From Candidatus Campbellbacteria bacterium GW2011_OD1_34_28 (GTDB lineage: Bacteria; Patescibacteriota; Minisyncoccia; Phycocordibacterales; UBA12079): DNA of 64,000 bases. Positions 20,752 through 54,056 of this stretch are shown one piece after another. The notes under the pieces are model-generated. The model saw only the letters and a program-made list of their open reading frames with translations, did not search any database and was not told the origin of the DNA. The first letter of the stretch is position 1; the number at the start of each line of letters is the position of its first letter. The stretch is from contig CP011215.1 in NCBI GenBank assembly GCA_001029775.1, positions 490,303 through 554,302 on the forward strand, in the 5' to 3' direction. The translations under genes were made by a program, and so were the position numbers.

Positions 20752-21015
20752 CAAAAACCAGACCTGAAAGCGACAGCTTTCAGGTCTTTGGTTTTTGTAG
20801 CCAGAGGAGAGGACTTGAACGGCGGAGGCGGTATACAAGACGAGCGAAGCGAGGGCTTGTCGCCGAGCCGCGTCCAGCAGTACTTAGGCTTTCGGAATCC
20901 GTAGCGAAGCGAAGGATGAGCGAAAGACTTAGTAACTGCGGGACAAGTCCTAACTTTTTAGCACAAAAACTTAGACCCAGAAGCACCAGCTTCTGGGTCT
21001 TTGGTTTTTGTAGTC
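20752..21015 (+). repeat. tRNA-linked 3' element (antisense tRNA end + core + decayed direct repeat)
   Basis: GAGGAGAGGACTTGAAC is the reverse complement of the tRNA 3' end; core GGCGGAG...GCGGGAC; then AAGTCCT and a duplicated hairpin. Confidence 0.85.
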
Positions 21016-21087
21016 ACAAAACATTTGCTAAATCATTAATTTGTGAAATAATTATAATAATTAAAAATTAATTTAATTCAAAAAAAA

Positions 21088-21648
21088 ATGACTACTATTT
21101 TATTTATTATTTTGGGAATAATTGCCGTTATTGCAGGATGGATTGCAATGACCTATAACGGTTTTATTACTTTAAAAAACAGAACAGAAGAAGCGTGGGC
21201 AGACATTGATGTTCAACTAAAGAGGAGATATGATCTTATTCCAAATTTGGTTAACACAGTAAAGGGATACATGACTCACGAGGCAAGTACTTTTGAAAAG
21301 ATTACCGAGGCTCGTTCAAACGCAATGAATGCACAAGGAGTTGAGGCAAAAGCACAATCAGAAAATATGTTATCAGGCGCTTTGAAATCTCTTTTTGCTG
21401 TTGCCGAAAGTTACCCAGACTTGAAAGCCAATCAAAACTTTTTGGAATTACAAAAAGAATTGTCAGACACGGAAAACAAAATTCAATCAGCAAGAAGATT
21501 TTACAACGGCAATGTGAGAGATTTGAATACAAAGATAGAATCTTTTCCATCAAATGTAATTGCAAATATGTTCAAATTTGTTAAGAGAGAATTCTTTGAG
21601 TTGGAAGAGGGATCGGAAGAAAAAGAACCCGTAGAAGTAAAATTCTAA
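21088..21648 (+). CDS. lemA: LemA family protein
   Basis: IDVQLKRRYDLIPNLV, AESYPDLKAN, RRFYN. Confidence 0.95.
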   Translation: MTTILFIILGIIAVIAGWIAMTYNGFITLKNRTEEAWADIDVQLKRRYDLIPNLVNTVKGYMTHEASTFEKITEARSNAMNAQGVEAKAQSENMLSGALKSLFAVAESYPDLKANQNFLELQKELSDTENKIQSARRFYNGNVRDLNTKIESFPSNVIANMFKFVKREFFELEEGSEEKEPVEVKF

Positions 21649-21662
21649 CAATTAAATAAAGC

Positions 21663-23456
21663 ATGCAAAATAAAAGCATTAAATCATATTTAATTTTTGG
21701 CTTGCTGTTTTTTCTTTTCGCAGCTCCTATAAATGCAGAGGAACAAAATAGAAGTTATCTCTATGATTCTTTTAAGGTAGATATTGTCATAAACAAAGAT
21801 TCTACTTTGGATATCACCGAGAGGCAGACCTTTAATTATAAAGGTAGATATAACAAAGGATGGCGTTCTATTCCTCTAGATAAAATTTCTGATATTACAG
21901 ATGTAAAAGTTATCGACGGAGCTACTGGTCTGGAATTAATCCATTCTTCTAAAATTTTAGAAAAAACTGATCCTGATAGTTGGGGTAAATATACATTTTA
22001 CAAACAAAATGGTGCTATAAATATCGAGTGGTATTACGATTTGGCTGATACTTCTCATGAATGGATTATTGAATATAAGGTTTATGGTGGTATTGGTTTT
22101 TATAATGATCATGATGAAGTTTACTGGAATCTATTCACAGATTTCGACGTACCAATTAATCATTTAGAAGTTTTAATTACCTTACCCTCTAATAATTTCT
22201 CAGAAGATGATATAACAGAAACTTTTTACAGTGATGCTGGGGGTCAATATTATTTGAAGAAGATGGAGGGTTCTGGGGTATTTTACTCTAAAGAAAATAT
22301 ACCCGTAAAAGCAGATGTAACTGTCGCTGTTGGTTGGCCAAAGGGTTTAATAAATCAAAGTTCATTTTGGTTGGGTTGGATAAAAATAAATATTCTCCTT
22401 ATCGTCTCGAGTCTTATTATTTTCCTTTGTTTAATAACTGGCTTTGTTTATTGGTATAGGAGTGAAAGAATGAATCAAGGTAGGGGAACAATCATTCCAC
22501 AATATGAACCACCTCAAAATCTACGTCCTGCTATGGCTGAAATAATTTGCAGAGAGGGTATAACCCCAAAGGCATGGCCTGCTACAATCGTCGATCTCGC
22601 AGTAAGAGGTTATATAACTATAACGGATAACACTAAAAAATTTCTTATATTCAAGACTCCTGATTTTGTCTTAGAGAAAAAGAAGAATTTTTTGAATGAA
22701 GATGGATTAGAAGATTATGAAAGAGAATATCTAACTATATTATTTTCATACGGAAAAGAAGGAAAGTTTTCTACAAGAGAAATGAATAAATCTTCTGATA
22801 CTATAAAGAGAGATATGTACAAGAAAATAAAGAAATTGGAGGAACATTTAATTAAAGAAACAGAAATTGATACAGGCGCTTTTGAGAAACTTCTTTCAAA
22901 AGAGAAAAAAATGTTTAGATGGATTATATTTTTAATTGTTTTCATCGCTTTTTCCGCGGAATATTCTATTTATCTTGTCACTGAACATTTACTTTCTACT
23001 AGTTTATTTTTGGTAATTAGTGCTGTGATTATTTTAATCTTTTTTATCAAGTATGAGGCTCGTTTAAATAAAAAAGGACAAATTTTGAAGGAAGATTGGC
23101 TTGGCTTTAAAATTTTCTTGGAAACCACAGGAAAAGATAGAATGCAAAATTTAACTCCAGAAATTTTTGAAAAATATTTACCATATGCCATGATTTTTGG
23201 GATAGAAAAACAATGGGCGAAAAAATTTGAAGGTATACACATGGTTCCTCCTGTTTGGTACCACAATACTGGTGCTATGATTGCTAGCAGTAGTTCGCTT
23301 GGTAACAGCGCTTCCAACTTTTCTCCTTCTGCTTTCTCTTCTTCTTTCTCGTCTGCTTTTTCGTCTGCCTTTTCTAGTTCAGCTGGTGGAGGTGGTGCTG
23401 GAGGTGGCGGGGGTGCCGGAGGCGGTGGAGGAGGTGGTGGAGGAGGCGCCAGCTAG
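21663..23456 (+). CDS. DUF2207 family membrane protein
   Basis: YWNL, ATIVDLAVRGY, LPYAMIFG, Ser/Gly-rich tail; lemA-htpX context. Confidence 0.85.
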   Translation: MQNKSIKSYLIFGLLFFLFAAPINAEEQNRSYLYDSFKVDIVINKDSTLDITERQTFNYKGRYNKGWRSIPLDKISDITDVKVIDGATGLELIHSSKILEKTDPDSWGKYTFYKQNGAINIEWYYDLADTSHEWIIEYKVYGGIGFYNDHDEVYWNLFTDFDVPINHLEVLITLPSNNFSEDDITETFYSDAGGQYYLKKMEGSGVFYSKENIPVKADVTVAVGWPKGLINQSSFWLGWIKINILLIVSSLIIFLCLITGFVYWYRSERMNQGRGTIIPQYEPPQNLRPAMAEIICREGITPKAWPATIVDLAVRGYITITDNTKKFLIFKTPDFVLEKKKNFLNEDGLEDYEREYLTILFSYGKEGKFSTREMNKSSDTIKRDMYKKIKKLEEHLIKETEIDTGAFEKLLSKEKKMFRWIIFLIVFIAFSAEYSIYLVTEHLLSTSLFLVISAVIILIFFIKYEARLNKKGQILKEDWLGFKIFLETTGKDRMQNLTPEIFEKYLPYAMIFGIEKQWAKKFEGIHMVPPVWYHNTGAMIASSSSLGNSASNFSPSAFSSSFSSAFSSAFSSSAGGGGAGGGGGAGGGGGGGGGGAS

Positions 23457-23488
23457 GATATTTTTTAAATTATAATATACTCTTACAT

Positions 23489-24394
23489 ATGGCAACACTT
23501 TATACTCATCAAGATTCAAATATTAGGAAAACATGGTTTTTAATGACCGTGTTTTTCGTCATTATAATTTGTCTTGGTTGGGCGTTTAGTTATTATTTTG
23601 AAAATCCGGCAATTTTATCATTTGCAATTATATTCAGTATTTTGATGAATATTACCAGCTATTGGTATTCTGATAAAATTGCACTGAAAATGTCAGGAGC
23701 AATTCCGGCTGACGAAATAAAATTTCAAGATCTTCACAACATTGTTGAAAATCTTTCCATCACAGCGGGCCTTCCAAAACCAAGAGTTTATATAATAAGC
23801 GACCCTTCTCCAAATGCTTTTGCAACAGGTAGAAACGCAAAAAATTCTGCCGTTGCTGTTACCACAGGTCTTTTAGATATTTTGGAAAAGAGCGAACTAG
23901 AAGGTGTGATTGCGCATGAACTCTCCCACATAGGAAACAGAGATATTTTGGTTTCTACTGTTGTTGTGGTACTGGTTGGCTTTATTGCCTTGCTGTCGGA
24001 TATGTTTTTAAGAATGGCTATTCATGGTGGGGGCAGAAGCAATGATTCTGGGAACAAGGGCAAGGCTATTATCCTCGTAATTGGGCTAATTTTGGCCATT
24101 TTAGCACCTATTGCATCTACTTTGATACAATTAGCAATATCTAGAAAAAGGGAGTTTCTGGCCGATGCGTCGGGGGCTCTCTTAACTCGTTATCCAGAAG
24201 GCTTGGCAAATGCTTTAAAGAAAATATCCGCCAATCCAAATCAGTTACAAAAAGTAAGCAAGGCGACTGCTCATATGTTTATTGCGAACCCATTTAAAGG
24301 GAAAAACATCTCTAATCTATTTATGACACATCCCCCGGTAGAAGAAAGAATTAAAGCATTATTAGGTAAAAATAATCCGAATGACCCGAATTAA
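23489..24394 (+). CDS. htpX: M48 zinc metalloprotease HtpX
   Basis: PNAFATG, HELSH, SRKREFLAD, THPP. Confidence 0.93.
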   Translation: MATLYTHQDSNIRKTWFLMTVFFVIIICLGWAFSYYFENPAILSFAIIFSILMNITSYWYSDKIALKMSGAIPADEIKFQDLHNIVENLSITAGLPKPRVYIISDPSPNAFATGRNAKNSAVAVTTGLLDILEKSELEGVIAHELSHIGNRDILVSTVVVVLVGFIALLSDMFLRMAIHGGGRSNDSGNKGKAIILVIGLILAILAPIASTLIQLAISRKREFLADASGALLTRYPEGLANALKKISANPNQLQKVSKATAHMFIANPFKGKNISNLFMTHPPVEERIKALLGKNNPNDPN

Positions 24395-24501
24395 ATCCTA
24401 ATTCCCCGAATTATCGAATCATCCGAATTTTATCACTTGTAATTCGTATTCGTAATTATTTGGGGCATTCGGATATAATTTGTAGATTCGGATTATATCT
24501 T

Positions 24502-25404
24502 ATGAAAGAAAATACCCATCTTTATTTTGCGGAAAAGGTTTTTGATTGTTTAGAAAATAAAAATCTTAGAAAAATTTTAAAAGAAAATTTTGATTATTAT
24601 GTTTTAGGAAGTGTTTTTCCTGATATTTTTTATCATAATAAAAAAACATCTGAAATATCCCAGATTATCCACGGAAGGGAATTGGAAAAAACCAATGAAT
24701 TGATATTTGATTTCTTAAATTATGCGAAAGAAAAGCAGGATGAAAAAAGTTTGGCCTTTACATTGGGATATATTTCTCACTATGTTTTGGATTCAAAATT
24801 GCATCCAATTGTTTATTTTTTGACAGGAAATTATTATGACAAAGATCAAACAAAAAGATTTTCTGCAATGTTACGTCACCGTCAATTAGAGACATTTTGG
24901 GATAAAAAACTAACAAAAGGATTTTCTCTTTGTAAAAAAGTAAAAATATCTTCGTTAAATGATCTAAGTCTGACGAATATAATTTTTGAAAAATACGAAA
25001 TAAATAAAAAGACTTTCATCTCTATTTTTAAGCAGTGCAAAATAAATAATAGGTTGTTTAGAAGTTATACGACTTATCTATTGTTTATTTTTTTGATTAA
25101 AGTCGGTTTATACAAAAACAAAACTGTTGATGGATTTTTTTTGTTCACCAAAAACAAAAATCTAGAAAACATAAGTAATGATTTAAGTTACAGAGATTTA
25201 ATTACAGGTGAACACAAAAAAGAAAATCTTTTGGATTTGATGAAAAAAACAGAGTTTTATTCAAAGGATTTGTTGGAATCAGCGTATGAATATTATTTGG
25301 GGAAAATAAGCATATTGGAATTGGAGAGAACAATTCCAGGCGTCAGTCTGGATACTGGTAAAATAGATTTTTCTGTCGAAAGTATTGTCTATACTAAATA
25401 TTGA
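24502..25404 (+). CDS. zinc-dependent phospholipase C family protein
   Basis: TH near N-terminus, GSVFPD, GYISHYVLD..HP, HRQLE. Confidence 0.75.
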   Translation: MKENTHLYFAEKVFDCLENKNLRKILKENFDYYVLGSVFPDIFYHNKKTSEISQIIHGRELEKTNELIFDFLNYAKEKQDEKSLAFTLGYISHYVLDSKLHPIVYFLTGNYYDKDQTKRFSAMLRHRQLETFWDKKLTKGFSLCKKVKISSLNDLSLTNIIFEKYEINKKTFISIFKQCKINNRLFRSYTTYLLFIFLIKVGLYKNKTVDGFFLFTKNKNLENISNDLSYRDLITGEHKKENLLDLMKKTEFYSKDLLESAYEYYLGKISILELERTIPGVSLDTGKIDFSVESIVYTKY

Positions 25405-25406
25405 TT

Positions 25407-25940
25407 TTATTCAACAAAAGTAAAAGATGAGACAATTTGAAGAAGGTCTTTTTTGATTATTTTGTCTTCCATATTCCAAGCAACAAACAAAAATTCATAA
25501 TTGTCTTTTGATGTAGTATAAACTTCACCATCGTTATAATTCATACCTTTTTGGTTTGCAACAAGGATCTCTTCTTTTGAAAATGGATCCATTCCACTTG
25601 GAGGAGCGAGACTGTCATCGCTATTTTCTACTTTTGCGATATTAACCAAAATTTCTTTTTGAGAACTGTTTGTTAGTTGGATTGTTTGGATAACACCTCC
25701 TGGTTGATCTCCATCGTTCCATTTGAAATCTTTTATTTTGTAATTTTTAGGATAATCAAATTTGAATCCATATTCTTGGTTTTGATATGTTCTTGTCTCA
25801 ATAATAGTTTTTTGTTCTTTCTGGATAGGGACATTTTCAGCAGTGGCTTTTTCAATGTTTTTGTTTTTAACAAATAAAAATGCAACAAAAGATGCCAATA
25901 TCAAAGCTATTATGGAAATAAGAATTATAAATTTTTGCAT
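25407..25940 (-). CDS. membrane-anchored PsbP-like hypothetical protein
   Basis: N-terminal TM, TYQNQEYGFKFDYP, IVSSFTF C-terminus. Confidence 0.6.
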   Translation of the reverse strand: MQKFIILISIIALILASFVAFLFVKNKNIEKATAENVPIQKEQKTIIETRTYQNQEYGFKFDYPKNYKIKDFKWNDGDQPGGVIQTIQLTNSSQKEILVNIAKVENSDDSLAPPSGMDPFSKEEILVANQKGMNYNDGEVYTTSKDNYEFLFVAWNMEDKIIKKDLLQIVSSFTFVE

Positions 25941-26016
25941 GGGTTAGATTTTAACATATTTTGATTCTTTTTATAAATTTTTTTTCCTGCGATATAATTA
26001 TTTTTTGTAAAAATAA

Positions 26017-26628
26017 TTATAAAGCTATTGTAGAAAGAACTGCTTGAAGATCAGTATCCTTTTTTTGTACCTCTATCGTAGGATAGCCGTATTTTTCGGC
26101 TTCTGCTCTAAGTTTATGACTAAAATCCAGCACCCACTCTATTTCTTTTGGTTTGAGGTCATCTGAATATTTTTTTGCATCATCCCAAAGTCCACGATTG
26201 TATATAACATCTTTTATTCTGTCTGCATCTTCATCCACTAAAAATACAGACGTAATTTCTTTGTTATTAGAAAAGTCTTTGGCTACTAGATGCGGTAATA
26301 TACCAACCCCTTCCATCACAAACCCTTTTTTCCATGTGTAATCATTTTCAATAAATTTTTTAATACCAACCCATACTGCCTCACTTTGTTCTAATTCTAT
26401 ATCTGCTATTTCTGAAGCAGAAAATTCAGTCAGAAATTTTTGAGCGTCATAACCTTCAATATTGAATAGTTTTGGATAATCTTCTCTTCGAGCAACGAGA
26501 CGCATGGTTTCTCGTATTTGGTCGGTAGAAATCCAAGGTAGATTCAAATGTTTTGCAACCAAAGCAGCCATAGTTGATTTACCAGTTGTGGGCGCTCCTC
26601 CTATAAGAATAATTTTTTTTGTTTTCAT
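26017..26628 (-). CDS. P-loop kinase (2-phosphoglycerate kinase-like)
   Basis: ILIGGAPTTGKST, STDQIRE, VMEGV. Confidence 0.7.
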   Translation of the reverse strand: MKTKKIILIGGAPTTGKSTMAALVAKHLNLPWISTDQIRETMRLVARREDYPKLFNIEGYDAQKFLTEFSASEIADIELEQSEAVWVGIKKFIENDYTWKKGFVMEGVGILPHLVAKDFSNNKEITSVFLVDEDADRIKDVIYNRGLWDDAKKYSDDLKPKEIEWVLDFSHKLRAEAEKYGYPTIEVQKKDTDLQAVLSTIAL

Positions 26629-26645
26629 GGTTTGAATTATTATTT

Positions 26646-26844
26646 TGCGGAGGGTACGAGATTCGGCGCCAGTTCTAAATAAAATTTTCGTCCTGCAGAC
26701 TTAATTTTATTAAGAACTCGCTGCCCCCGCTCACTCGTGTTCGTCGCTTCGCTCCTCCATACTCGCTCGGTTCGAATCTCTTCCCCTCGGTGTAACGACA
26801 CAAAACAAAAACAGTGCATTGGTACTGTTTTTGTTTTGGTCGTG
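26646..26844 (-). repeat. tRNA-linked 3' element (Ser subtype)
   Basis: 20-bp direct repeat of the tRNA 3' end at 26646-26665; inverted copy at 26770-26790. Confidence 0.85.
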
Positions 26845-26929
26845 CGGAGGGTACGAGATTCGAACTCGTGAAGGCTTTCACCTTGCCGCCTTTCCAAGAC
26901 GGTGCACTCGACCGCTATGCGAACCCTCC
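26845..26929 (-). tRNA. tRNA-Ser(GGA)
   Basis: GGAGGGT/ACCCTCC acceptor, GGA anticodon, long variable arm. Confidence 0.95.
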
Positions 26930-27005
26930 AATGAGAGTGATTATAACAAAATAAAAAAAATAGCCCAGCATGGATTGTCTTGCAACAATCTTTGCTGGGC
27001 TTTTT

Positions 27006-27281
27006 TTACTTGATCTCTGCCGTGATTTTGGCGGTGAGTTTTTTCAGATAATTTTTTGCCTTGGTGTCATAATGCTCTGGTATTGATTGATTCATCAACG
27101 CTATGGCGATGACGATCTCGTCGATTTTGTCACTGGGGAGTTTGCTCTCCCGAAGAATCGTACCGTATTTACGCATGTCGGCTTCTGCCTGAGCCGTCGG
27201 CAGATGTTCGATCTGTTCGCGCATTTTGCCGAGAATGACCTCGTGAAATGGTTGTTTTTTGCCATTTTTTTTCTCACTCAT
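27006..27281 (-). CDS. small orphan helical protein
   Basis: AAGGAGG SD; overlaps upstream ORF stop. Confidence 0.7.
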   Translation of the reverse strand: MSEKKNGKKQPFHEVILGKMREQIEHLPTAQAEADMRKYGTILRESKLPSDKIDEIVIAIALMNQSIPEHYDTKAKNYLKKLTAKITAEIK

Positions 27282-27583
27282 TTGCATTCCTCCTTTACCA
27301 GATTAGAAAGTGCAGAAATTGCCTCTGACAACTCGTTGATTGTTTGCAACGCATCGTCGTTTCTGAATGGTTGTATCTTGATTCTCATCTCGACTAATTT
27401 TGAAATAATAATTTCAATACTCTTTGTGTCTTTGGGCGGACACTCAGATAAATACCGACATACTCTTGCCACTAACTCTCTGTTTTTGGGAGCACAGGTA
27501 GCAAAAATTATGCCGTTGACATCTTTCTCCATATCACCAAGCATAATCTGGTATATGGGTGCTAAACTGTCTTTTCGGCACAT
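27278..27583 (-). CDS. small orphan helical protein
   Basis: AAGGAGG SD; weak similarity to the downstream ORF. Confidence 0.7.
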   Translation of the reverse strand: MCRKDSLAPIYQIMLGDMEKDVNGIIFATCAPKNRELVARVCRYLSECPPKDTKSIEIIISKLVEMRIKIQPFRNDDALQTINELSEAISALSNLVKEECK

Positions 27584-27729
27584 CAAAACCTCCTTGTCAA
27601 AAAATGGTTAATCTTGAATTTCTGACAAAATACTACATTTTTTGAATAAAAAAGACAAGGGATTTGACTTTAAGGCAAGTTTCCTGTTAAATCTTGCTAG
27701 AAAGATTAATTTAAAAGAGGAATATACTA

Positions 27730-28269
27730 ATGAATATTTATAAGGTAATAGCCAATTGTTTAAGTGCTTCAAGATTTTTAATTCCCATAATTCTTTTTGG
27801 ACCGCTAGGTTCTGTGGTTCAAAAAATTGTTGTTGTCATTGTTTTGATTTCCACGGATTTTGTGGACGGATGGTTTGCCAGAAAAGGAGGATCTCCTGCT
27901 CGTTTGGGGGAAATTCTTGATCATACATCTGACAAAGTTGCTTCGCTATCTGTTGGAATTTTTATTTTGTTAAATAATTTTGTTGTTTTCCCTGTAATAT
28001 TTACGGCTCTTGTTTCAGAAACCTTAATATTTTTGTTGTCAGCTTTGTTGGTTAGATTAAATGGTAACTTGATTATTACCAAGATCGGCAGAACAAAAAT
28101 GTTGTTTTTTTGTGCAGGGTTTGTTTTTATTTTTTTAAATCAAATCGATCCGAGACAAATTTTTGAAACGTTGATTTTTGTAAGTTTAGTAATAGGAATT
28201 TTGTTATCAATCATTTTAAATTTTTTTTACTCAACAAAAATTTTACAGCTTGCCATCTGTGGCAAGTAA
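27730..28269 (+). CDS. CDP-alcohol phosphatidyltransferase family protein
   Basis: ANCLSASR; DFVDGWFAR...GEILDHTSDK signature. Confidence 0.85.
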   Translation: MNIYKVIANCLSASRFLIPIILFGPLGSVVQKIVVVIVLISTDFVDGWFARKGGSPARLGEILDHTSDKVASLSVGIFILLNNFVVFPVIFTALVSETLIFLLSALLVRLNGNLIITKIGRTKMLFFCAGFVFIFLNQIDPRQIFETLIFVSLVIGILLSIILNFFYSTKILQLAICGK

Positions 28270-28338
28270 AAAGCGGTGTAAGACACCGCTTTTTTTATTT
28301 TTTAAATTTACATTTTATGAAAAATATTTTCTAAATCT

Positions 28339-28347
28339 TTATCCACA
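28339..28347 (+). promoter_or_regulatory. DnaA box upstream of ribonucleotide reductase
   Basis: TTATCCACA ~70 bp before the start. Confidence 0.5.
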
Positions 28348-28416
28348 AATAGATTTGAAAAAAAGAGAGTAGAATTTTAGTAAATTCATTATTAATTTAT
28401 TAAAAAAGTCTTCAAA

Positions 28417-31435: not shown

Positions 31436-31460
31436 AAAAAGCACCCCTAGGGGTGCTTTT

Positions 31461-32379: not shown

Positions 32380-32460
32380 CTCGACTTCCAGTTCTAATCG
32401 AAAATTTCGTCTTCACTTCGTTACAACTCATTTTCGATAAGAACTCGCTGTCCCGTCGCT
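32380..32460 (-). repeat. orphan copy of the tRNA-linked core (Ser subtype)
   Basis: minus strand GGGACAGCGAGTTCTTA...TTAGAACTGG matches the Ser element core GGGGCAGCGAGTTCTTA...TTAGAACTGG. Confidence 0.7.
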
Positions 32461-32549
32461 CATATTTTTCTATATACAAAACACCTAGAATTTTTGTTAA
32501 TTTTGTAATATAATTCAAGATATTTTAAGTTTTTAACTTTTGATATTTG

Positions 32550-32746: not shown

Positions 32747-32945
32747 TATCCGCTCGTAGCTCAGCTGGATGAGAAGCGTTGAAGCTTCGAATCCGAGCGA
32801 AGCGAGGTGGAAGAGTATTCCTTTGAAATGTAAGAGTCGGATGCTAATACACTTAGCATGGACTTCAGAGGTTTTACACAAAAGTAAAAGTAGAGATATC
32901 CGCTCGTAGCTCAGCTTCTGCCAAAGGCAGACAGGGTCCGAGCAA
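32747..32945 (+). repeat. two duplicated 5' fragments of tRNA-Lys with D-loop inserts and an antisense anticodon-arm copy
   Basis: TATCCGCTCGTAGCTCAGCT at 32747, 32897 and 32990; TAAGAGTCGGATGCT at 32831-32845. Confidence 0.85.
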
Positions 32946-32992
32946 CAATCATTGAGACAGACAAGTCTGTAAAATCATCATGGATTTAGTAT

Positions 32993-33374: not shown

Positions 33375-33447
33375 GGGCCTATAGTTTCAATTGGTAAAAC
33401 AGTGGTCTCCAAAACCATCGTTCGAGGTTCGAGTCCTCGTGGGCCCG
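33375..33447 (+). tRNA. tRNA-Trp(CCA)
   Basis: GGGCCTA/TGGGCCC acceptor, CCA anticodon; follows rpmG. Confidence 0.95.
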
Positions 33448-33682
33448 CAAAAAGAAGACCCGCAAGGGTTTTTCTTTTTGTTGGGTCCACGAACAAAGCA
33501 ATCTAAATTGCTTTGTGTAGGACGAGAACGGCGGAGCGGTTTACAATTTTAGTAAAATTTTCCAACAAAGAAAATCTTACTAAAATTGTCGCGAGCCGCG
33601 TCCAGCGATACTTAGACTTTTTGAAACACGAAGTGTTTCAAAAAGACTTAGTAATCGCGGGACAGTCCTCGTGGGCCCGCAA
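33448..33682 (+). repeat. tRNA-linked 3' element (Trp)
   Basis: split antisense end at 33483-33529, core 33530-33663, exact 19-bp direct repeat 33664-33682. Confidence 0.9.
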
Positions 33683-44390: not shown

Positions 44391-44565
44391 CTAAATCTGT
44401 GTGGACACAAATCACTAAATATTTTTTTCGCCCTTTGGGCTCAAAAATATCTAAGTGTTTGTCGTCCTCGGCTCGCGGTTTTTGTCTCTTTGTGAGAGAC
44501 AAAAACATTGCTCCGCCTTCACAAAGCTAAAAAAGCAAAGCAGTTTGCTTTTTCTTAACGCTTTG
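44391..44565 (-). repeat. tRNA-linked structured element (Glu subtype)
   Basis: colinear with 3814-4026, with compensatory stem changes. Confidence 0.85.
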
Positions 44566-44811: not shown

Positions 44812-44860
44812 CACAACTAAAACAAAAAAGTCCTCTCATTGCGAGAGGACTTTTTGTTTT

Positions 44861-46207: not shown

Positions 46208-46238
46208 AAAAATGAAAAGCTGCTAGCTTGTAGCCAAT

Positions 46239-46282
46239 ACCTGCCTGCCGTGTCGTTGCTTTTCTTTCAGAAAAGAGGCAGG
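46239..46282 (+). repeat. 44-bp CCTGCC...GGCAGG dispersed repeat, copy 2
   Basis: identical to 3675-3718. Confidence 0.9.
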
Positions 46283-46397
46283 GTTGATAGTGGTAATCAA
46301 AATGAGTTTACAGTTTACAGCAAAGACGGAAGAATTTTGGCAAAGCCAAAATTCTTCCGCACTTGCTACTTGATACTAGCTACTTTATACTTGGTTC

Positions 46398-46504
46398 AGT
46401 GTATTGGGCAAAAGTGTGCTGTTACCATCACGGCCAAAACTCTCCAGCGCGCATCTCTTTTATTTGCCTTTTTACACAAAACCCGCCATTCGGCGGGTTT
46501 TTTT
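46398..46504 (+). ncRNA. candidate sRNA
   Basis: TTGCTA-17-TATACT, long irregular hairpin GTGTA...TACAC, terminator. Confidence 0.4.
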
Positions 46505-46534
46505 ACTTGCTACTTATTACTCAGCACTTTTTAC

Positions 46535-47461
46535 TTATTTTGTTCTTATATAAATATAAATATCTTCCAAAGCTTTTATAGCATCTCCCGAAGCAATATT
46601 GTTTTGATGATATAAACCGTCGGTACAATCTCCAGCTGCCCAAACACCCTCTGCAGAGGTTCTTTGTGTTTGATGATCAACAACGATAGATTTGTAGTCG
46701 TTCAGTTTGACCAATTCAGAAACAAATCCTGTTGTTGGTTCTGCACCAATTTCTACAAAGATTCCATTTGTAGAAACTTCTTTTTCTTCGCCTGTGTGAA
46801 TATCAATATATCTCAAACCAGTGACAAATTTTTCTCCTAATATTTCTTTTGTCTCGGCATTTGATATCAGTTTGAAATTTGGATGTGAGGAAACTTTTTT
46901 GACGGTTATTTCATCTGCTTTAAATTTTCCATTTTTGTGTAGCAGAGTGACGCTCTTGGCATATGCTAAAAGTTGGGAAGCGGTTTCAAATCCTGCATTA
47001 CCGCCACCAATAACCATTACATCTCTTCCTGTGTATAGAGGGCCATCACAGGTAGCACAGTAAGTAATTCCGCGATGTTCCAAGACATCAGCATTTTTTG
47101 CTTGTAATCTTCTTCGGTGACTTCCTGTTGTTACCAAGACTGTCTTTGCTTTGTATAAATTATTTTTTGTTTTTATTTCAAAGCCATCAACTTTATTTCC
47201 ACTTATCAGCTCTACTTTTTCACCTTCTTTAATATCAACAATATCGCCAGCATATTCTTTTAAGTGACTTTCCAGATTTTTTGATAGCTCTTGTCCCGAA
47301 ATAGATTTTGTTCCAACCCAGTTTTGAATATCATCGGACACAATACTTTGTCCGCCAAAAGAGTCTGCAATTAAAACAGTTTTTAATTTTTTTCTTGCAG
47401 CGTATATTCCTGCGCTGATTCCTGCGGGACCTCCGCCAATGATTGCCAGTTCGTATATCAT
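46535..47461 (-). CDS. trxB: thioredoxin reductase-like FAD oxidoreductase
   Basis: GGGPAG, CATCDG, GGGNAG, AAGD. Confidence 0.9.
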   Translation of the reverse strand: MIYELAIIGGGPAGISAGIYAARKKLKTVLIADSFGGQSIVSDDIQNWVGTKSISGQELSKNLESHLKEYAGDIVDIKEGEKVELISGNKVDGFEIKTKNNLYKAKTVLVTTGSHRRRLQAKNADVLEHRGITYCATCDGPLYTGRDVMVIGGGNAGFETASQLLAYAKSVTLLHKNGKFKADEITVKKVSSHPNFKLISNAETKEILGEKFVTGLRYIDIHTGEEKEVSTNGIFVEIGAEPTTGFVSELVKLNDYKSIVVDHQTQRTSAEGVWAAGDCTDGLYHQNNIASGDAIKALEDIYIYIRTK

Positions 47462-47630
47462 AGTTTTTAGTCGTTAGTTTTTAGTTTATAGATAATTTCA
47501 AATTTTAACAGTTTTTGTTTAATAAGTAAAAATTTATGTAGTTTGAAAAAGCAAAGAAAAAACCCGTATTAATAATTACGGATTTTTTCTTTAAATTGGC
47601 GATGAAATGTGCCAAATTTGGGTTAATTTT

Positions 47631-48773
47631 TTATTTATTTCTTCTTAAAAATGAAGGTATAGCATCCCAAGTATCTTCTTCCTCCTCTTGTGCTGGCGGT
47701 TGCTGTGTAGGAGTTGGGTTGATTGGTTTTTGTGGAGTTTTAATTTCTTCTTTCTTTGTTCCTATTGTGTTGTGAATTTTATTTTTTTTATCGTCTATAA
47801 TAACTTTTCCAATAGGGGATAATCCAAACCCTGTTGCAATAACAGTAATTTTTATTTCGTTCTTTTTCAATTTGTCGTCTTTGATTGTTCCAAATTTTAC
47901 CTTTGCATCTGGATCAATTGATTCTGTAATAATATTTGCTGCTGTTTGGATTTCGTCCATTCTCAAATCGTCACCACCTGCAATTGTAAACAAAACTCCT
48001 TTTGCTCCGTGAATTGAAACATCCAATAGGGGAGAGCTGATTGCTTTTTTAGCGGCTTCTTCGGCTCTTTTTTCTCCAGTTGCTTTTCCTACTCCCATAA
48101 GAGCAGAACCAGAGTTTTCCATGATGGCGCTGATGTCTGCAAAGTCCACGTTGATTCTTCCAGGGGATGTAATAAGGTCTGAAATGCCCTCTACGGCCTC
48201 TCTTAATACCTCATCGCTCATAGCAAAGGCACTATCCACTGTCATTCCTTTTGGAGCAATACTCAAGATGCGATCGTTAGGGATAATAATCACAGCATCT
48301 ACCGCTCTCTGTAAATCGTTTAATCCGGCTTCTGCCAATTTCATTCTTTGATTTCCTTCAAAAGAAAATGGTTTTGTTACAACAGCAACTGTTAGGATGC
48401 CAAGTTCTTTTGCCATCTTTGCAATCACAGGGCTAGCACCTGTTCCTGTTCCTCCCCCCAATCCTCCGGTGATAAAGACCATGTCAGATCCTTTCAAAGT
48501 TTCTTGAATTTCTTCACGAGTTTCTTCTGCCGCTCTTTGTCCCAAGTCTGCGTTCATTCCTGTACCAAGTCCACGAGTTAGATTTTTTCCGATATGAATT
48601 TTTTTGTTTGCAAGAGAGTGATGCAAATCTTGTGCATCTGTATTCATAACAATAAATTCAACTCTGTCTACTTTAGACTTGATCATATAGTTGGTTGCGT
48701 TTTTTCCAGAGCCTCCTACTCCAATCACTTTTATTCTGGCGAATGCTTCAACCTCGGGGTTTATTTTCGGCAT
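47631..48773 (-). CDS. ftsZ: cell division protein FtsZ
   Basis: GGGTGTG tubulin motif, NVDFAD, C-terminal IPSFLRR. Confidence 0.97.
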
Positions 48774-48996
48774 ATTAGTATAAAAATTATTTGTTAAATT
48801 AAAATAAAATACAGAGCGCTTTTTCAAGTCCGCACCGGTCTTTTAAACCATTTTTAAAAGTCATTACTATAATACCAAAAAGAAAAGCAAAATCAAAATT
48901 GATTAAAAGAGGCCTTTTTTGAATTTTATCCGAGATCCGACCTCGGGTAAATAAAAATCCCCCAGGCCGAAGCTTGGGGGTTGAAAGGGTTATATG

Positions 48997-49182
48997 TTAG
49001 AGAATCACCTGAATTCCCTTTGCCTCTAATTCTCTCCGAATTTTGAGAGGATCAGAGGTCTCTCCCACAACAACAAGAGGGTTGTTGGGGTGAGTGATGT
49101 TCCAGCCACGCTTGTCGTCCCTACGGACAACAGCGACTTCTTTCAGGTCGTACTTACGACCGTTCTCTGTTTGGAAAGTCAT
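48997..49182 (-). CDS. small orphan protein inserted between ftsA and ftsZ
   Basis: TTGACA-17-TATAAT promoter, AGAGGA SD, own hairpin at ~48958-48981. Confidence 0.7.
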   Translation of the reverse strand: MTFQTENGRKYDLKEVAVVRRDDKRGWNITHPNNPLVVVGETSDPLKIRRELEAKGIQVIL

Positions 49183-49427
49183 TTTTTTATCCTCTTTCAA
49201 TTTTTTTTAGGTTGTCCTCCCTATAGACAACCTTATTCTTATATTATTATATAACTATATAATACAAGTGTCAATAGAGTAAAAACCTTTTAAAAACAAG
49301 CTAAAATAGGGAAGTGAGATACAATAAGATTATATGTTGTTTGTGTCAATATAGCGTAATAATTCAAAACAAAAAACGGAAAATTTTGTTTCAACAAAAT
49401 TTTCCGTTTTTAATATTTAAATTGCAA

Positions 49428-50594
49428 TTATATTGAAAACATTCGAAGCCATCCAAACAATTTTTCTTTGATATTCTTGAATCCACGAGAGATTCCGCCT
49501 TCATCTTTTGAATTTAATCCCAAGACACACAATCCATAGGCGACAGTCCAAGTAGAGTCTTTTATTTTTGCATTTGTATTAGTAATTAGGTTAATAGAAG
49601 CAACTTTTGAAGGCAATTTCAAATATGCTTTTGCGATGTCTTCTATTGTGGTAATACCGGATCCACCCCCTGTCAAAATAATTCCCCCTGGTAACAGTCC
49701 ATTTCTACCGATTTTTTTAAGGTGTGCCTCGATTAGCTGGAAAATACCTGCCAATCTTGAAAAAATAATATCGTCTAATTTCTTTTTTGGGTAAGATGTA
49801 TTGCTGATTACTCCTGTTTTTATTTTTTCCGCTTCCTCCAAAGAAATCTTTAGACCCAAAGCAATGTCGTTTGTTATATTAGTTGATCCAATAGGGAATA
49901 TTTCTAAGGAAATAGGAGTGTTGTTTTCGTAAACTATTATTGAGACAGTTTCTGATCCTAAATTTGCCAAAACACAGCCCGGCATCTTTTGAGATTTTGT
50001 TAGGGTTACGATTCCTGCTGCTATCGGAGCAGCAACAATGTCTTCTACTTCAATACCAATTTCTTCAACCGCATTTATCAAATCTTCCAAATGTTGTTTT
50101 AGATATGTAATAAATAAAACTTCTATTTCCATTTTTTTCCCCTTTATTCCCTGTGGTCTGCCGAATACTTTTTGTCCATCTATTTTATATGAAAGGGGAA
50201 CACGATGAATAATTCTTTTGTTTAAAAGCTGAACATTGTTTTCTGCTGAACGGATTGCTTTTTGTATATCAAGTTCTGTTATTTCATAATCTCCTTTTGT
50301 TGAGATAGTAGAACCGACGGTAGTGATCCCTTCTAGAGAAACTCCTCCTATCGATAGGTATGCTTTTTTAATTTTTATACCCGAAGATCTTTCTGCTTGT
50401 TTAACCGCTCTTTCTAGACTTTTTGATACATCACTTTGATTTATGATATAGCCGTGACGAAGACCTTTTGATTCAGAAGAACCTCTCCCAATAATCCTTG
50501 GAATGTCTTTTGATTTCTCTTTTATCAATTCAGCAACAACCACCTTTATTTGGTGTGTTCCGATGTCTATTCCCACTGAATTTTTTTTAGACAC
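49428..50594 (-). CDS. ftsA: cell division protein FtsA
   Basis: GIDIGT, GLRHG, ITNDIA, LTGGGS; near ftsZ. Confidence 0.93.
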   Translation of the reverse strand: MSKKNSVGIDIGTHQIKVVVAELIKEKSKDIPRIIGRGSSESKGLRHGYIINQSDVSKSLERAVKQAERSSGIKIKKAYLSIGGVSLEGITTVGSTISTKGDYEITELDIQKAIRSAENNVQLLNKRIIHRVPLSYKIDGQKVFGRPQGIKGKKMEIEVLFITYLKQHLEDLINAVEEIGIEVEDIVAAPIAAGIVTLTKSQKMPGCVLANLGSETVSIIVYENNTPISLEIFPIGSTNITNDIALGLKISLEEAEKIKTGVISNTSYPKKKLDDIIFSRLAGIFQLIEAHLKKIGRNGLLPGGIILTGGGSGITTIEDIAKAYLKLPSKVASINLITNTNAKIKDSTWTVAYGLCVLGLNSKDEGGISRGFKNIKEKLFGWLRMFSI

Positions 50595-50649
50595 TTTTAA
50601 AAATCAATAATTAATAATTATTAAATCAGAAAATTATTTTTTGCAGAAA

Positions 50650-51042
50650 TTAAAGATTAAAAAATTTTCTAATTTTATCTTCTTGTTCCTCCATTCTACT
50701 ACTATGTTCAAAACCTTTCAAATGGATAAGTCCGTGTATAAATAGGAATCCTATAAAATCGGAAAATTCTCTCTCGTATTTTTTTGCTTGTTTTTCGGCT
50801 AGTTTATAATTTATAAAAATTTCTCCAGAATCTTCTGAAAGTGGAAAACTTAGAATATTTGTCGGGCTGTTTTTTCCTCGGTATTGTGTATTTAGTCTTT
50901 TTGATAATTTATCTCCAATAAACACCAAACTTAATTCATATTTTTTACCTAATGCCTTATTTTTGATATTTTCAAAAGGCAAGCTGGGAAGCTTGCCTTT
51001 TGTTTGGTTTTTTATATTGATTGTTTCTTCTGATTTTTTCAA
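50650..51042 (-). CDS. ybeY: rRNA maturation endoribonuclease YbeY
   Basis: YRGKNSPTNILSF, HGLIHLKGFEH. Confidence 0.92.
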   Translation of the reverse strand: MKKSEETINIKNQTKGKLPSLPFENIKNKALGKKYELSLVFIGDKLSKRLNTQYRGKNSPTNILSFPLSEDSGEIFINYKLAEKQAKKYEREFSDFIGFLFIHGLIHLKGFEHSSRMEEQEDKIRKFFNL

Positions 51043-51046
51043 AGTC

Positions 51047-51277
51047 TTACTTCTTTGCGGGAGCTTTTCCCATCTTAATCATTTGATCAATTTCAGCTTT
51101 TCTTGTTATTGATTTAAGAGTTCTCTTTTTTCTTGTGTATTTTGATTCATCTCTTTGGTGGTATCTGATAGAACGCACTCTAGCGATGATTCCCGAGCTC
51201 TTTACTTTCTTGCTGAATCTTCTAATCAAACCAAGGTTATTTTCGTTATTATTCTTTGTTAACTCAATGTTTATCAT
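51047..51277 (-). CDS. rpsU: 30S ribosomal protein S21-like
   Basis: small basic protein, LIRRFSKKVKSSG...RY. Confidence 0.7.
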   Translation of the reverse strand: MINIELTKNNNENNLGLIRRFSKKVKSSGIIARVRSIRYHQRDESKYTRKKRTLKSITRKAEIDQMIKMGKAPAKK

Positions 51278-51315
51278 GGCTGTTAGAATAACATAATTTA
51301 TTTTTTTATGCAAAG

Positions 51316-51418
51316 AAAAAACGCCTTCCCGGGGGAAGGCGTTGAAAGAAGGTTGTAATCGTTGGAAGTTTTCCTGATTATTTGTTTGGGAGGGAAGCCC
51401 AAACCCAATCGATTACAT
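51316..51418 (-). ncRNA. candidate sRNA
   Basis: TTGACA-16-TATACT promoter, closed multi-stem TGTAATCG...CGATTACA, terminator. Confidence 0.55.
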
Positions 51419-51498
51419 TAATAGTATACATTTAAATTTATCATTGTCAATCCCACACTTTTTGTTTTTGTAGAAACAATCCGCCTGTCTTTAATGGT

Positions 51499-52638
51499 TT
51501 AAACAAACTTTATTTTTTTCAAATATTGAGGAAGTTTGTTTATTTTTACAATTTCATAAGAAACATTATGTGTATTTTTGAAAATAACTTCGTCTTCAAG
51601 CGCTTCTTTTTGGCCGATTATTATCATATAAGGAACGCGTGTTTTTTTTGCGCTGATAAACTGATCGCTTAGCTTGTTTTTATATAGTTTTTGATGAACT
51701 GTGATTTTTTGTCTTCTCAAGATATCAATTACCTCAAAACTTTTTAGTTTTGCTTTGAATCCAAATTGAATCAAAAATATTTGAGGGGTGTTTATTTTGT
51801 TTGAGTAAGCAGGAGTAAATCCATTTTTCTTGTAAATCATAGAAAGACCAACTGCGGGTAGATTTCTTTTTCCGATGATTTTGTTTACTACATCATCATA
51901 TCTTCCTCCTCTTGCCAAGATTAATTCTGTAGAGTCTTCTCCTAATGTTTTAATTTCAAAGACTGTTTTTGAATAATGGTTGTCTTCTACAACAAGGTCA
52001 CTGTTGATTCGGTAGGGAAGACGCATGTCTTCTAGATATTCCAAAACCTCTTTAAAGTGTTGGCGGCTTTTTTCTGTTAAGTAGTTTATTGGTCGCGGAG
52101 CATTTTCTATCAATTCTCTGCAGTTTTCGTTTTCACAAGAGGTTGCTAAGAAATTTTTCTTATCAATTTTATATTTACAACTACAATTGAAAGAACCAGA
52201 ATGTTTTTTATAATAATTACCTACTTCCTCTATAAATTTGTTTAGAGAGTCTTTATCACCTGTACAATTTATATCTATAAAAAAATTTTTATAACCTTCT
52301 TCACTTAGAATTTTTGAAGCCGTATTTATAAGCATTGCTTCGGCGATACTATTTTGAACTCCGATAATATCAAGGCTTAAGACTTTGTGAGTTTTTAAAT
52401 TAGGAATTTGTTTTTTGTTTATCAAAATAGGACGATCAAAATAAAGCATTAGTGGTTGTGAGTTTGCACCTTTTCCACTCATTTTTCCATATGTTTTTAA
52501 TACATGGTGTTTTTCTTCAGGGTGAAGAGGAGTATTTTTGTTTGTGTAGGCGGTTGGGATTTCTTCAAATCTAAAACCATGGTGAAGTGCTATTTCGTCA
52601 GCTTTGTCTAATCTTTTTTTGAGGATTTTAATGTCCAT
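51499..52638 (-). CDS. degenerate histidyl-tRNA synthetase paralog
   Basis: motif 3 GGRYD and anticodon-binding domain retained; motif 2 and RGLDYY replaced. Confidence 0.7.
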   Translation of the reverse strand: MDIKILKKRLDKADEIALHHGFRFEEIPTAYTNKNTPLHPEEKHHVLKTYGKMSGKGANSQPLMLYFDRPILINKKQIPNLKTHKVLSLDIIGVQNSIAEAMLINTASKILSEEGYKNFFIDINCTGDKDSLNKFIEEVGNYYKKHSGSFNCSCKYKIDKKNFLATSCENENCRELIENAPRPINYLTEKSRQHFKEVLEYLEDMRLPYRINSDLVVEDNHYSKTVFEIKTLGEDSTELILARGGRYDDVVNKIIGKRNLPAVGLSMIYKKNGFTPAYSNKINTPQIFLIQFGFKAKLKSFEVIDILRRQKITVHQKLYKNKLSDQFISAKKTRVPYMIIIGQKEALEDEVIFKNTHNVSYEIVKINKLPQYLKKIKFV

Positions 52639-52682
52639 ATTTTTGTTAAAAAACAATTTATTAATGATATTTAATTTGATGA

Positions 52683-53231
52683 TTAATAATCAAAATTTCC
52701 TGGCAATACATCTATCTTATTAATTGGCAGAAGTCTTAAGAAGGCTTTTCCTACTATCATATCTTTGGGCAATGCCCCCCAAAATCTTGAGTCCGAGCTA
52801 TTTCCTCGGTTGTCTCCCATAACAAAATATTCATTTTCTCCTAATTCAACCCGCGTGTTTTCCAGAGATCCTTTTTCAACATAATTTTCTTTTAGATTTA
52901 AACCTTCTGGTTTGTTGATATTGTAGATTGTTACCTTTCCGTTCTTAATTTCTACTGTTTCGTTTGGTAATCCGATAATTCTTTTTATAAAGAAACGACT
53001 TGGATCTTTGGGATATTTGAAAATTATTACTTCGCCTCTTTGAGGGTCTTCTATTCGGTAAGAAATTTCATCAACAATGAGATAGTGACCTGTTTCAAAT
53101 GTCGGACTCATCGATGCGCCATCAACAATAAATGGTTTTGCGACGTACATTCTGAAAGGAAGCACAATAAGTAAAGTAAGTAGTGAGAACTTTAAAACTT
53201 CTACAAAAAAGTTTTCTTTAGAATTATTCAT
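52683..53231 (-). CDS. lepB: signal peptidase I
   Basis: GASMSPT, IKRIIGLP, GDNRGNSSDSR. Confidence 0.95.
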   Translation of the reverse strand: MNNSKENFFVEVLKFSLLTLLIVLPFRMYVAKPFIVDGASMSPTFETGHYLIVDEISYRIEDPQRGEVIIFKYPKDPSRFFIKRIIGLPNETVEIKNGKVTIYNINKPEGLNLKENYVEKGSLENTRVELGENEYFVMGDNRGNSSDSRFWGALPKDMIVGKAFLRLLPINKIDVLPGNFDY

Positions 53232-53385
53232 TGCAGATATCTTATCACAAACAAAAATTCAAATGCAAAGAAAAATTTATCGGAAAATTTTTTATTTCTC
53301 TCGTCAATAGGATTTTTTCTGGTGTTTTAAAAAATTTATGTGTTATAATTTATCGGAATTAATTATAAATTTAAAATTTTTTTAT

Positions 53386-53622
53386 ATGAACAAAGTAACA
53401 ATTTATACAACACCGACTTGTACTTATTGTTTGATGGCAAAAGATTTTTTTCAAAGCAACGATGTTGACTATGAAGAAGTTGATGTTGCTGGCAATCAAG
53501 AAAAAATACAAGAGCTGTTGGAGTTGACCGATGGTCAAATGGGAGTGCCTGTTATCGTAATTGATGGGGAAGTAGTCTTTGGTTTTGACAAAAGCAGAAT
53601 CGAAGAGCTTTTGGGAATTTAA
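53386..53622 (+). CDS. glutaredoxin/NrdH-like protein
   Basis: CTYC, GVPVI, GFD. Confidence 0.9.
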   Translation: MNKVTIYTTPTCTYCLMAKDFFQSNDVDYEEVDVAGNQEKIQELLELTDGQMGVPVIVIDGEVVFGFDKSRIEELLGI

Positions 53623-53738
53623 AAACAACAATAAAATTTTAAATAAAAAACCCCGTATAAATTTTATTTACGGGTTTTTTTATTTATTAAACATTAAATT
53701 GAATAAAAAACATTATAATGATATCTTAGAGAATAAAT

Positions 53739-53810
53739 GCTCTCATAGTTAAATGGATATAACGACTCCGTCCTAAGGAGTAATTCTAGGTTCGATTCCT
53801 GGTGAGAGCA
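53739..53810 (+). tRNA. tRNA-Arg(CCT)
   Basis: GCTCTCA/TGAGAGC acceptor, CCT anticodon. Confidence 0.95.
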
Positions 53811-54056
53811 CAAAATAAAAACAGGTGTAGCGAAAGCTCCGCCTGTTTTTATTTTGTGTTCTCACAGAAAGCAAACTGCTTTGCTTTCGTCAGGAATCGA
53901 ACGGTGGAGCATGTCGCACGCAAGTTATTTTCTCCCACAAAGAGAAAATAACGAGTACGACAGCGAACCGCGTCCAGCGATACTTGGGATTTTTTGAAAC
54001 ACGAAGTGTTTTGAAAAAGACTTAGTAATCGCGGGACGATTCCTGGTGAGAGCACA
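53811..54056 (+). repeat. tRNA-linked 3' element (Arg)
   Basis: split antisense end at 53855-53902, core 53903-54037, exact 20-bp direct repeat 54037-54056. Confidence 0.9.

Follow-up and report, generated by a model that had tools for sequence, protein, structure and literature searches.

A 64,000-nucleotide stretch of the genome of Candidatus Campbellbacteria bacterium GW2011_OD1_34_28 (GenBank contig CP011215.1, positions 490,303 to 554,302, forward strand; hereafter the window) contains four tRNA genes that are each followed by a unit of ~0.2 kb carrying an antisense copy of the 3′ end of that same tRNA. On balance, we regard the unit as a gene-less, non-autonomous element of single-stranded DNA, in which the antisense copy, termed the guide here, would direct strand exchange between tRNA positions 56 and 57. 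A first-pass annotation of the window had described the layout of the four loci and had proposed a non-autonomous mobile element that targets tRNA genes and combines a shared core with host-specific flanks. All four loci read as it claimed, and the proposal itself is borne out by the extent of the core family, by an empty and a filled allele of one locus, and by the ancestry of the cores.

By reading, the four loci share one order: tRNA, hairpin, cognate antisense with a GAA end opposite positions 54–56, core, and direct copy of the tRNA 3′ end. All four host tRNAs (Leu, Ser, Trp, and Arg) were identified with ARAGORN, which was used for tRNA calling. The parts of the units are as follows, in window coordinates.

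20670..20752, plus strand: tRNA-Leu(TAG), host gene (ARAGORN), with C56 at 20734 and A57 at 20735
20753..20797, plus strand: first hairpin (M1) of the Leu unit, terminator-like on both strands
20798..20819, plus strand: antisense guide of the Leu unit, tRNA positions ~73 to 54, with two bulged A
20821..20869, plus strand: left core stem of the Leu unit
20872..20944, plus strand: right core stem of the Leu unit, matched by the covariance model R1 described below
20945..20964, plus strand: decayed direct copy of the Leu unit, starting at position 57
20965..21013, plus strand: hairpin from an older, truncated unit at the Leu locus
26844..26929, minus strand: tRNA-Ser(GGA), host gene (ARAGORN)
26793..26843, minus strand: first hairpin of the Ser unit
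26771..26792, minus strand: antisense guide of the Ser unit
26665..26770, minus strand: core of the Ser unit, of a second core subtype (left stem 26727-26770, right stem 26665-26725)
26646..26664, minus strand: exact direct copy of the Ser unit, starting at position 57
33375..33448, plus strand: tRNA-Trp(CCA), host gene (ARAGORN)
33449..33481, plus strand: first hairpin of the Trp unit
33482..33528, plus strand: bipartite antisense guide of the Trp unit (internal hairpin 33493-33518), with tandem G·A pairs opposite G57-A58
33530..33663, plus strand: core of the Trp unit (left stem 33530-33597, right stem 33600-33663)
33664..33682, plus strand: exact direct copy of the Trp unit, starting at position 58
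53739..53811, plus strand: tRNA-Arg(CCT), host gene (ARAGORN), with C56 at 53793
53812..53854, plus strand: first hairpin of the Arg unit
53855..53901, plus strand: bipartite antisense guide of the Arg unit (internal hairpin 53866-53890)
53903..54037, plus strand: core of the Arg unit (left stem 53903-53969, right stem 53972-54037)
54038..54056, plus strand: exact direct copy of the Arg unit, starting at 57, with an empty allele in relative G006 (L298)

The cores are 105–135 bp long, and the guides of the Trp and Arg units are each interrupted by an internal hairpin. The direct copy, which is exact over 19–20 bp in the Trp, Arg, and Ser units and decayed in Leu, starts at position 58 in Trp and at 57 in the other three units; in Arg and Ser the start is ambiguous at 56 through a shared C. 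At the gathering score, Rfam gives 11 tRNAs in the window and nothing else, and at E values up to 1 it returned just three weak miRNA matches for 15 units, so the units match no described Rfam family. The Arg unit is covered without mismatch by one 808-bp contig from a separate assembly of a sequencing run that is possibly the source. This identity, together with the presence of the family in 30 other genomes, excludes an assembly artefact.

To follow the core across genomes, R1, a covariance model of the right core stem built from 18 copies, was run on this genome (752,630 bp in a single contig, near-complete, with 39 tRNA calls and one transfer-messenger RNA (tmRNA)), on 40 relatives of the same order, and on 140 genomes sampled phylum-wide. 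This genome contains 25 sense matches and three overlapping matches on the opposite strand. Most cores are tRNA-linked, as the first-pass annotation had led us to expect: 21 of the 25 lie no more than 700 bp behind tRNA or tmRNA genes (17 genes), two of the others follow displaced tRNA 3′ fragments (Ser-GCT and Gln-CTG), and the last two are an orphan and a core within a broken Ser copy. R1 matches all 18 other genomes of the same family and 12 of 22 from the order's other families (30 of the 40 relatives), and none of the 140 phylum-wide genomes, of which the 20 listed lie outside the order. In 89 loci drawn from the R1 match list, 87 of 115 matches have a called gene upstream; among the matches listed, most of the others are preceded by a displaced fragment or by a tmRNA that is cut off. 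Tandem arrays reach 3–4 units, and units also remain behind broken or displaced tRNA copies.

A scan of GTDB with a 19-mer returned at least 121 stretches, and those shown with a title were labeled as Patescibacteria lineages or as unnamed bacteria; its search pattern required GA after the core, so junction counts from it are biased. Among the matches listed, a same-strand tRNA or tmRNA lies upstream of 88 of the 112 cores with 300 bp of flank, and the targets comprise at least 32 anticodon labels as well as tmRNA. A 17-mer scan of metagenomes gave 46 stretches, many of them apparently chance or from outside the candidate phyla radiation, and these were excluded from the allele test of displaced tails described below. 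Scans of viral sequences for core motifs gave 1 and 11 matches, all of them chance on reading; one further viral match is putatively RtT-like.

The guide is specific to its host. An exact antisense copy of a tRNA's own positions 57–63 occurs within 140 nt in 148 of 337 tRNA loci, a set enriched for such elements, against 0.9% for another tRNA's. The layout is thus not a product of chance, as the folding z scores given below also show. The guides located by these positions alone complement positions 54–56 in 143 of the 148 loci and follow all six non-TTC T-loops (four TCC, two TGC), whereas the base opposite G53 is C in just 37 of the 143. Since 54–56 are complemented but G53 mostly is not, the guide extends exactly three bases past the unit's own tail. 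This register is taken from the 337-locus scan anchored at 57–63, because the anchor of the GTDB guide scan fixed two of the three bases opposite 54–56. Among the matches listed, guide and host pair at 5.27 of the six positions 59–64, compared with 3.17 ± 0.11 for shuffled hosts. The guide is also better preserved than the direct copy, which decays: positions 54–64 of the guide are perfect in 45 of 70 (among the matches listed), and positions 57–72 of the direct copy in 39 of 111. An internal hairpin splits 28 guides, in 18 of them after position 64 or 65, and tandem G·A lies opposite 57–58 in 4 of 62 guides among the matches listed.

The acceptor end of the guide bears on an idea raised in the first-pass annotation, that the antisense is the primer-binding site of a retro-element primed by the tRNA 3′ end. 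A complement of ~20 nt to the tRNA 3′ end and polar tandem arrays speak for such priming. However, the guide complements the genomic trailer in 32 of 57 informative cases, the mature CCA in none, and neither in 25; seven genes that encode CCA are uninformative for this comparison. A guide that tracks T-loop variants and the genomic trailer, and never the mature CCA, is not a primer-binding site. Moreover, the guide is often split by a hairpin, the loops are of DNA type (see below), and reverse transcriptase gave no match in this near-complete genome. The priming idea is thus largely refuted already, and we give it hardly any credence.

The fold of the unit is conserved. In the right stem 91.7% of alignment cells are paired, in a structure drawn from the same sequences that it scores, and 19 of 25 pairs are altered on both sides; RNAalifold finds 17 of 20 pairs compensatory. 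A T·T mismatch and a bulge are conserved in this stem as well. The structure of the unit is therefore under selection. The loops reveal the strand: across 91 elements, cGNAg triloops number 87 on the tRNA-sense strand and nine on the antisense strand, against 18.5 in shuffles, and cUUCGg occurs once. GNA loops are stable in DNA. The loops of the unit are of DNA type and fold on the sense strand.

If the unit instead acted in cis as RNA, as a switch, processing aid, or small RNA that pairs with the pre-tRNA 3′ end, the great stability of the Trp and Arg units as RNA (folding z scores of −14.0 and −13.7) and an excess of cGNRAg loops (35, against 10.5 in shuffles) would fit; folded as DNA, the Leu unit has a z score of −12.2. 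Three rRNA-linked copies of the tRNA-linked repeats (TLRs) of Escherichia coli are also transcribed and bind Hfq and CsrA, according to the accessible part of PMC8144298. Against this, a T4 run lies ahead of the guide end in 61 of 79 units, cUUCGg is nearly absent while GNA triloops dominate, units persist behind broken or displaced tRNA copies, and orthologous loci show patchy presence and replacement. An RNA switch, which had also been proposed from the letters alone, is thus very unlikely.

The presence of the units varies between close relatives. At the Arg-CCT locus, the comparison of relatives revealed the empty site that had been sought: G006 has the same tRNA and flank but no unit, and in this genome the locus is filled, with positions 57–76 repeated. 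Judged by eye, the tRNA-Trp locus is filled in 14 of 19 family genomes and not in five, one of which ends 53 nt past the gene. G006 and this genome have identical tRNA-Trp genes, yet the hairpins and core subtypes behind them are unrelated. Tandem neighbors are mostly unrelated whole units, since only 2 of 15 adjacent pairs share hairpin and guide at 90% identity or more; at least one of the 15 is spurious. In the same small set, a model in which the core alone moves and duplicates hairpin and guide fits just one pair and was rejected.

Core ancestry ignores the host. Of the core pairs at least 80% identical, 13 of 15 stand at different amino acids, and the nearest core is at the same amino acid in 15 of 117 cases, with a baseline of 6.6%. 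In relative G008, the Lys, Phe, and Leu units have a common internal hairpin and right stem and different cognate guides. These modules, together with the core ancestry, indicate that guides are rewritten or modules swapped often. Together, the empty and filled pair, the mixed tandem arrays, and the near-identical cores at different tRNAs demonstrate mobility and retargeting.

One unit (L083) lies at the 3′ end of a ribosomal-protein gene, which we take to be S9. The upstream and the displaced tail differ in sequence but both encode S-K-R-stop, the differences being synonymous; of the two, it is the upstream tail that the guide matches. Judging from the sequence, this indicates that the unit brought its own tail.

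This locus also bears on the possibility that the guide is a footprint, copied from the tRNA tail at each insertion by fold-back synthesis from the first hairpin and without a later role. Such synthesis would account for cheap retargeting and for the match to the genomic trailer, and hairpin and guide are indeed repeated around different cores in two loci (L290, L303). However, a single run of synthesis would erase the internal hairpin found at 64/65 in 18 of 28 split guides. Nor would it be expected to leave the tandem G·A at 57–58, which recurs in E. coli. The better preservation of the guide relative to the direct copy, and an L083 guide that matches the incoming rather than the displaced tail, also argue against a footprint, which we consider improbable.

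In the mechanism that we favor, in which the guide directs the exchange, the unit runs from a copy of tRNA positions 57–76 through the hairpin or terminator, the antisense guide from 73 to 54, and the left stem to the right stem. When free, the unit would probably be circular, with its guide paired to its own 57–76 copy and GAA left open at a three-way junction; in the predicted circular fold of the Arg unit, these three toehold bases lie at such a junction and are largely unpaired. GAA would then pair with T54-T55-C56 of a tRNA or tmRNA gene in single-stranded form, and the tail of the target would displace the unit's own copy. The single strand may be supplied by the sense strand displaced during transcription or by incoming DNA. 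One strand exchange at 56/57 would join C56 of the target to position 57 of the unit, and the end of the right stem to position 57 of the target. The tRNA would thereby be restored and the old tail moved downstream, where it would decay, and the first hairpin would usually stop transcription before the guide. The enzyme would act in trans; candidates are an HUH-type protein, or a small GIY-YIG nuclease together with a host ligase.

The genome was searched for such an enzyme. It encodes three Y1 proteins, two small GIY-YIG proteins (96 and 82 aa), one XerC/D-like recombinase, and one serine recombinase, and these matches all lie outside the window. RT, IS110, and Y2 gave no match in this genome, and the window is thus free of integrase, transposase, and RT, as had been noted at the outset. 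The only PF00589 match is Xer-like and away from the units, the Y1 genes read carry palindromes of their own, and the serine recombinase was rejected because it is located in a separate island. An IS91-type Y2 transposase is present in 1 of 41 genomes and in none of 19 in the same family. The core is absent from 32 Y1 loci, and none lies near the XerC/D-like recombinase gene. Clustering of open reading frames (ORFs) over 109 and then 155 loci yielded host genes and tRNA-side LAGLIDADG-like and GIY-YIG genes, none of them within a unit. Small GIY-YIG genes lie by tRNA or tmRNA genes in 25 of 47 cases read in relatives, as separate cassettes; none encloses a complete core, and R1 matches nearby are separate units at the same tRNA.

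Several results weigh against the guided exchange. The first-pass annotation had suggested a search for longer copies with an ORF; among ~200 distinct right ends, no complete unit contains an enzyme gene, and R1 gave no E value under 0.09 at the 34 loci with Y1, Ssn-like, or recombinase genes. At two tmRNA loci (L061, which is the same as L218, and L080), a GIY-YIG gene directly precedes a right-stem tail only. In the guide duplex, G·T and A·C mismatches number 17 and 13, with no clear preference and hence no strand signal. A search for further protein-gene targets gave six matches in 401 genomes, all chance, so that L083 is a single case. Displaced, diverged tails equal another functional allele in 3 of 35 cases against 0.62 expected, a weak hint that some units may have been carried in together with the complete tRNA of the donor, through recombination on their left side. 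No circular form was seen in contigs from three related runs, which break at the Arg locus and are uninformative on circles and empty alleles. There is no bias toward the lagging-strand template either: 11 of 23 co-oriented and 10 of 15 head-on genes are filled, in a small sample with classes assigned by hand. Finally, the conserved guide could reflect selection for excision or hairpin stability only.

Guidance by pairing may also be set against a structural role for the antisense. CTXphi with XerC and attC with IntI are models for the joining of folded single strands by one strand exchange. On this view the antisense would make the single-stranded unit locally double-stranded, and a tyrosine recombinase would join the resulting attP-like fold to the T-loop in the same manner. 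The single XerC/D-like recombinase of this genome and the stems with conserved bulges and a T·T mismatch are compatible with this. The T-loop is, moreover, a known crossover subsite of islands that target tRNA genes (PMC4383910, available text). Yet at least 32 anticodon labels, tmRNA, acceptor-end sites, and a protein-gene end are too many for one site read by a protein. Where the guide extends past the unit's own copy, its three additional bases track the target, and no core lies near the recombinase gene. We therefore regard an attP-like fold as unlikely.

The units share several traits with known mobile elements, but they differ from islands and from the IS608 and IS91 families in a defining property each; the comparison draws on the accessible parts of the cited articles. 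With tRNA and tmRNA islands they share the restored gene, the displaced 3′ fragment, the crossover in the T-loop, and tandem arrays (PMC4383910). Islands encode a tyrosine integrase and measure at least 2 kb, whereas the units are ~0.2 kb without ORF or integrase, carry a cognate antisense copy, and occupy >30 different targets with a single core family. In IS608, DNA-DNA pairing sets the target and the right end, and extended pairing can redirect the element (PMC5934647). Its hairpins are imperfect, a guide lies at the base of a stem, and one strand is active, traits to which the fold of the units and their putative guide and active strand correspond. Its guide, however, is 4 nt long and its engineered extension pairs upstream of the cut, in contrast to the ~20 nt of the units, which pair mostly downstream (PMC5934647). 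The units further differ from IS608 in carrying a replacement tail, in having no linked TnpA, and in showing no lagging-strand bias. Strand-specific hairpins with a pairing guide are a trait of the wider IS200/IS605 group, and the units show paired stems, strand-biased loops, and a fixed guide register. IS91-family elements insert 3′ of GTTC, also GTCC, which corresponds to tRNA positions 53–56 and fits the unit junction after C56, or of a CTTG-like tetranucleotide; IS91 forms single-stranded circles and has a palindrome beside its end. It needs a Y2 transposase and, unlike the units, makes no duplication (bioRxiv 10.1101/2025.01.24.634351). Ssn proteins are small GIY-YIG proteins that cut single-stranded DNA beside strand-specific hairpins and, in the available text of PMC11893778, are not shown to transpose. 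This genome has two small GIY-YIG proteins, the 96-aa and 82-aa ones, but no GIY-YIG gene is enclosed by this core.

The layout recalls the E. coli TLRs, which have been known since 1978 and have no known function, as stated in the accessible part of PMC8144298. TLRs, among them the 178-bp tyrT repeat (RtT, Rfam RF00391), are defined there by an 18–19-bp tail of the upstream gene and lie behind tRNA or rRNA genes in one to five copies, and the words "inverted" and "mobile" are absent from that part. TLRs and the Patescibacteria units both lie directly behind a tRNA gene (TLRs also behind 5S), are ~170–200 bp long, occur in tandem copies, and end in an 18–19-bp copy of the upstream gene's tail. 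E. coli K-12 has 18 matches to RF00391, of which 17 are tRNA-linked. Ten of the 17 carry a cognate antisense T-arm (four Tyr, one Pro, three Ser, and two long Lys) and seven do not, at an alignment score of at least 24, with the Pro copy tying with a non-cognate arm. The statement of the first-pass annotation that E. coli TLRs are not known to make an inverted cognate copy is thus wrong at the sequence level. The Tyr, Pro, and Ser TLRs have tandem G·A opposite G57-A58, as in the Trp unit of the window, and cGNAg loops are present in TLR cores. A degenerate antisense of the 5S 3′ end and trailer also seems, by eye, to be borne by an rRNA-linked TLR of K-12 (L463).

The cores are unrelated, since RF00391 matches none of 61 genomes of this order and R1 has no significant match in seven E. 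coli loci; the Patescibacteria family thus resembles TLRs in the way it works, without belonging to RtT. The TLR antisense reaches position 49, with a second T-stem copy in sense orientation behind it, whereas that of the units stops at 54. The junction lies at 58/59 in TLRs and at 57 in the units, and TLR arrays consist of near-identical copies, those of the units of mixed ones. Neither the Patescibacteria family nor an antisense copy within TLRs is described in the literature covered, which leaves out subscription papers such as Rudd 1999 that may mention it. What is new here is the Patescibacteria family; the TLR-like kind to which it belongs is known but unexplained.

The window holds two further members and one orphan core. 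In the members, which follow Glu genes, the antisense pairs with the acceptor end instead of the T-loop.

3815..4013, plus strand: tRNA-Glu(CTC) member, with a short antisense (3890-3900) to the acceptor end and trailer and no T-loop direct copy
44403..44564, minus strand: tRNA-Glu(TTC) member of the acceptor-end subtype, antisense at 44519-44527
32383..32470, minus strand: orphan 5′-truncated core, then a T-loop-like remnant, with no same-strand tRNA upstream

Other insertions accompany the units. The same order of tail, hairpin, antisense, core, and direct copy is found in at least four other core families, which are stacked with R1 units (G000:C1:196547-196740; L071, L077, L082, L085, L121, L155, L411). 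A perfect 20-bp palindrome is inserted at many G000 sites, in cores, direct copies, and broken tRNA copies. Upstream of the Leu gene, 20507-20629 on the plus strand is a broken 5′ tRNA-Leu copy whose D-loop bears an 87-bp two-hairpin insertion. Insertions of this family recur in Ser, Thr, and Phe copies and within cores, and have one hairpin in common with the internal hairpin of the guide. At 32750-32990 on the plus strand, two additional 5′ tRNA-Lys(CTT) fragments with decayed insertions in between precede the intact gene.

Small nuclease genes also occur in this setting. At L011 (G000:C1:396606-397300), tRNA-Thr(TGT) has a second copy behind it that bears a D-loop insertion and is split at the T-loop by the 82-aa GIY-YIG gene in a 15-bp inverted repeat. 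The 96-aa GIY-YIG gene lies amid palindromic repeats at L010 (G000:C1:367950-368800); we take the gene to be Ssn-like and the palindromes to be of CGTC type. At 54109-54225 in the window, a gene-less inverted-repeat element lies at a gene start, a site at which G006 lacks it, and its ends match those flanking GIY-YIG genes in L197, L219, L223, and L224. Such nucleases thus do have non-autonomous satellites here. Behind tRNA-Gly at L212 and L217, the ORF of a GIY-YIG cassette is placed after the tRNA tail; a short antisense copy of that tail comes next and then a direct copy, which gives a guide-like layout with a different junction. ORFs that read as LAGLIDADG-like by motif abut tRNA-Tyr, -Ser, and -Leu genes (L039, L094, L105, L126, L128), and a GIY-YIG gene lies within an apparent 16S rRNA gene at L184. 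A tyrosine recombinase and an IS91-like transposase were seen at L444 (G032:C41), on a contig that is apparently foreign to its bin and lacks the element by eye.

Units and TLRs have a common layout, which suggests base pairing as the means by which both locate their site. Tentatively, and with considerable doubt, they might be seen as a widespread, unrecognized natural class of DNA-guided insertion, in which a folded single strand would carry a guide of ~20 nt and a replacement copy of its target, a small enzyme acting in trans would read the core only, and the guide would be rewritten from the target. A single enzyme could then serve every tRNA, tmRNA, or conserved gene end and leave the gene intact. 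The cognate antisense, the empty and filled alleles, and the retargeting recast TLRs from odd small RNAs into testable mobile elements, of which E. coli K-12 offers ten copies for bench tests. If pairing does set the site, the units would be a natural counterpart of engineered IS608, with programmable, non-disruptive, DNA-guided insertion. In streamlined genomes, the units account for much of the non-coding DNA around tRNA genes, and a repeated tRNA tail in such genomes need not signal an island.

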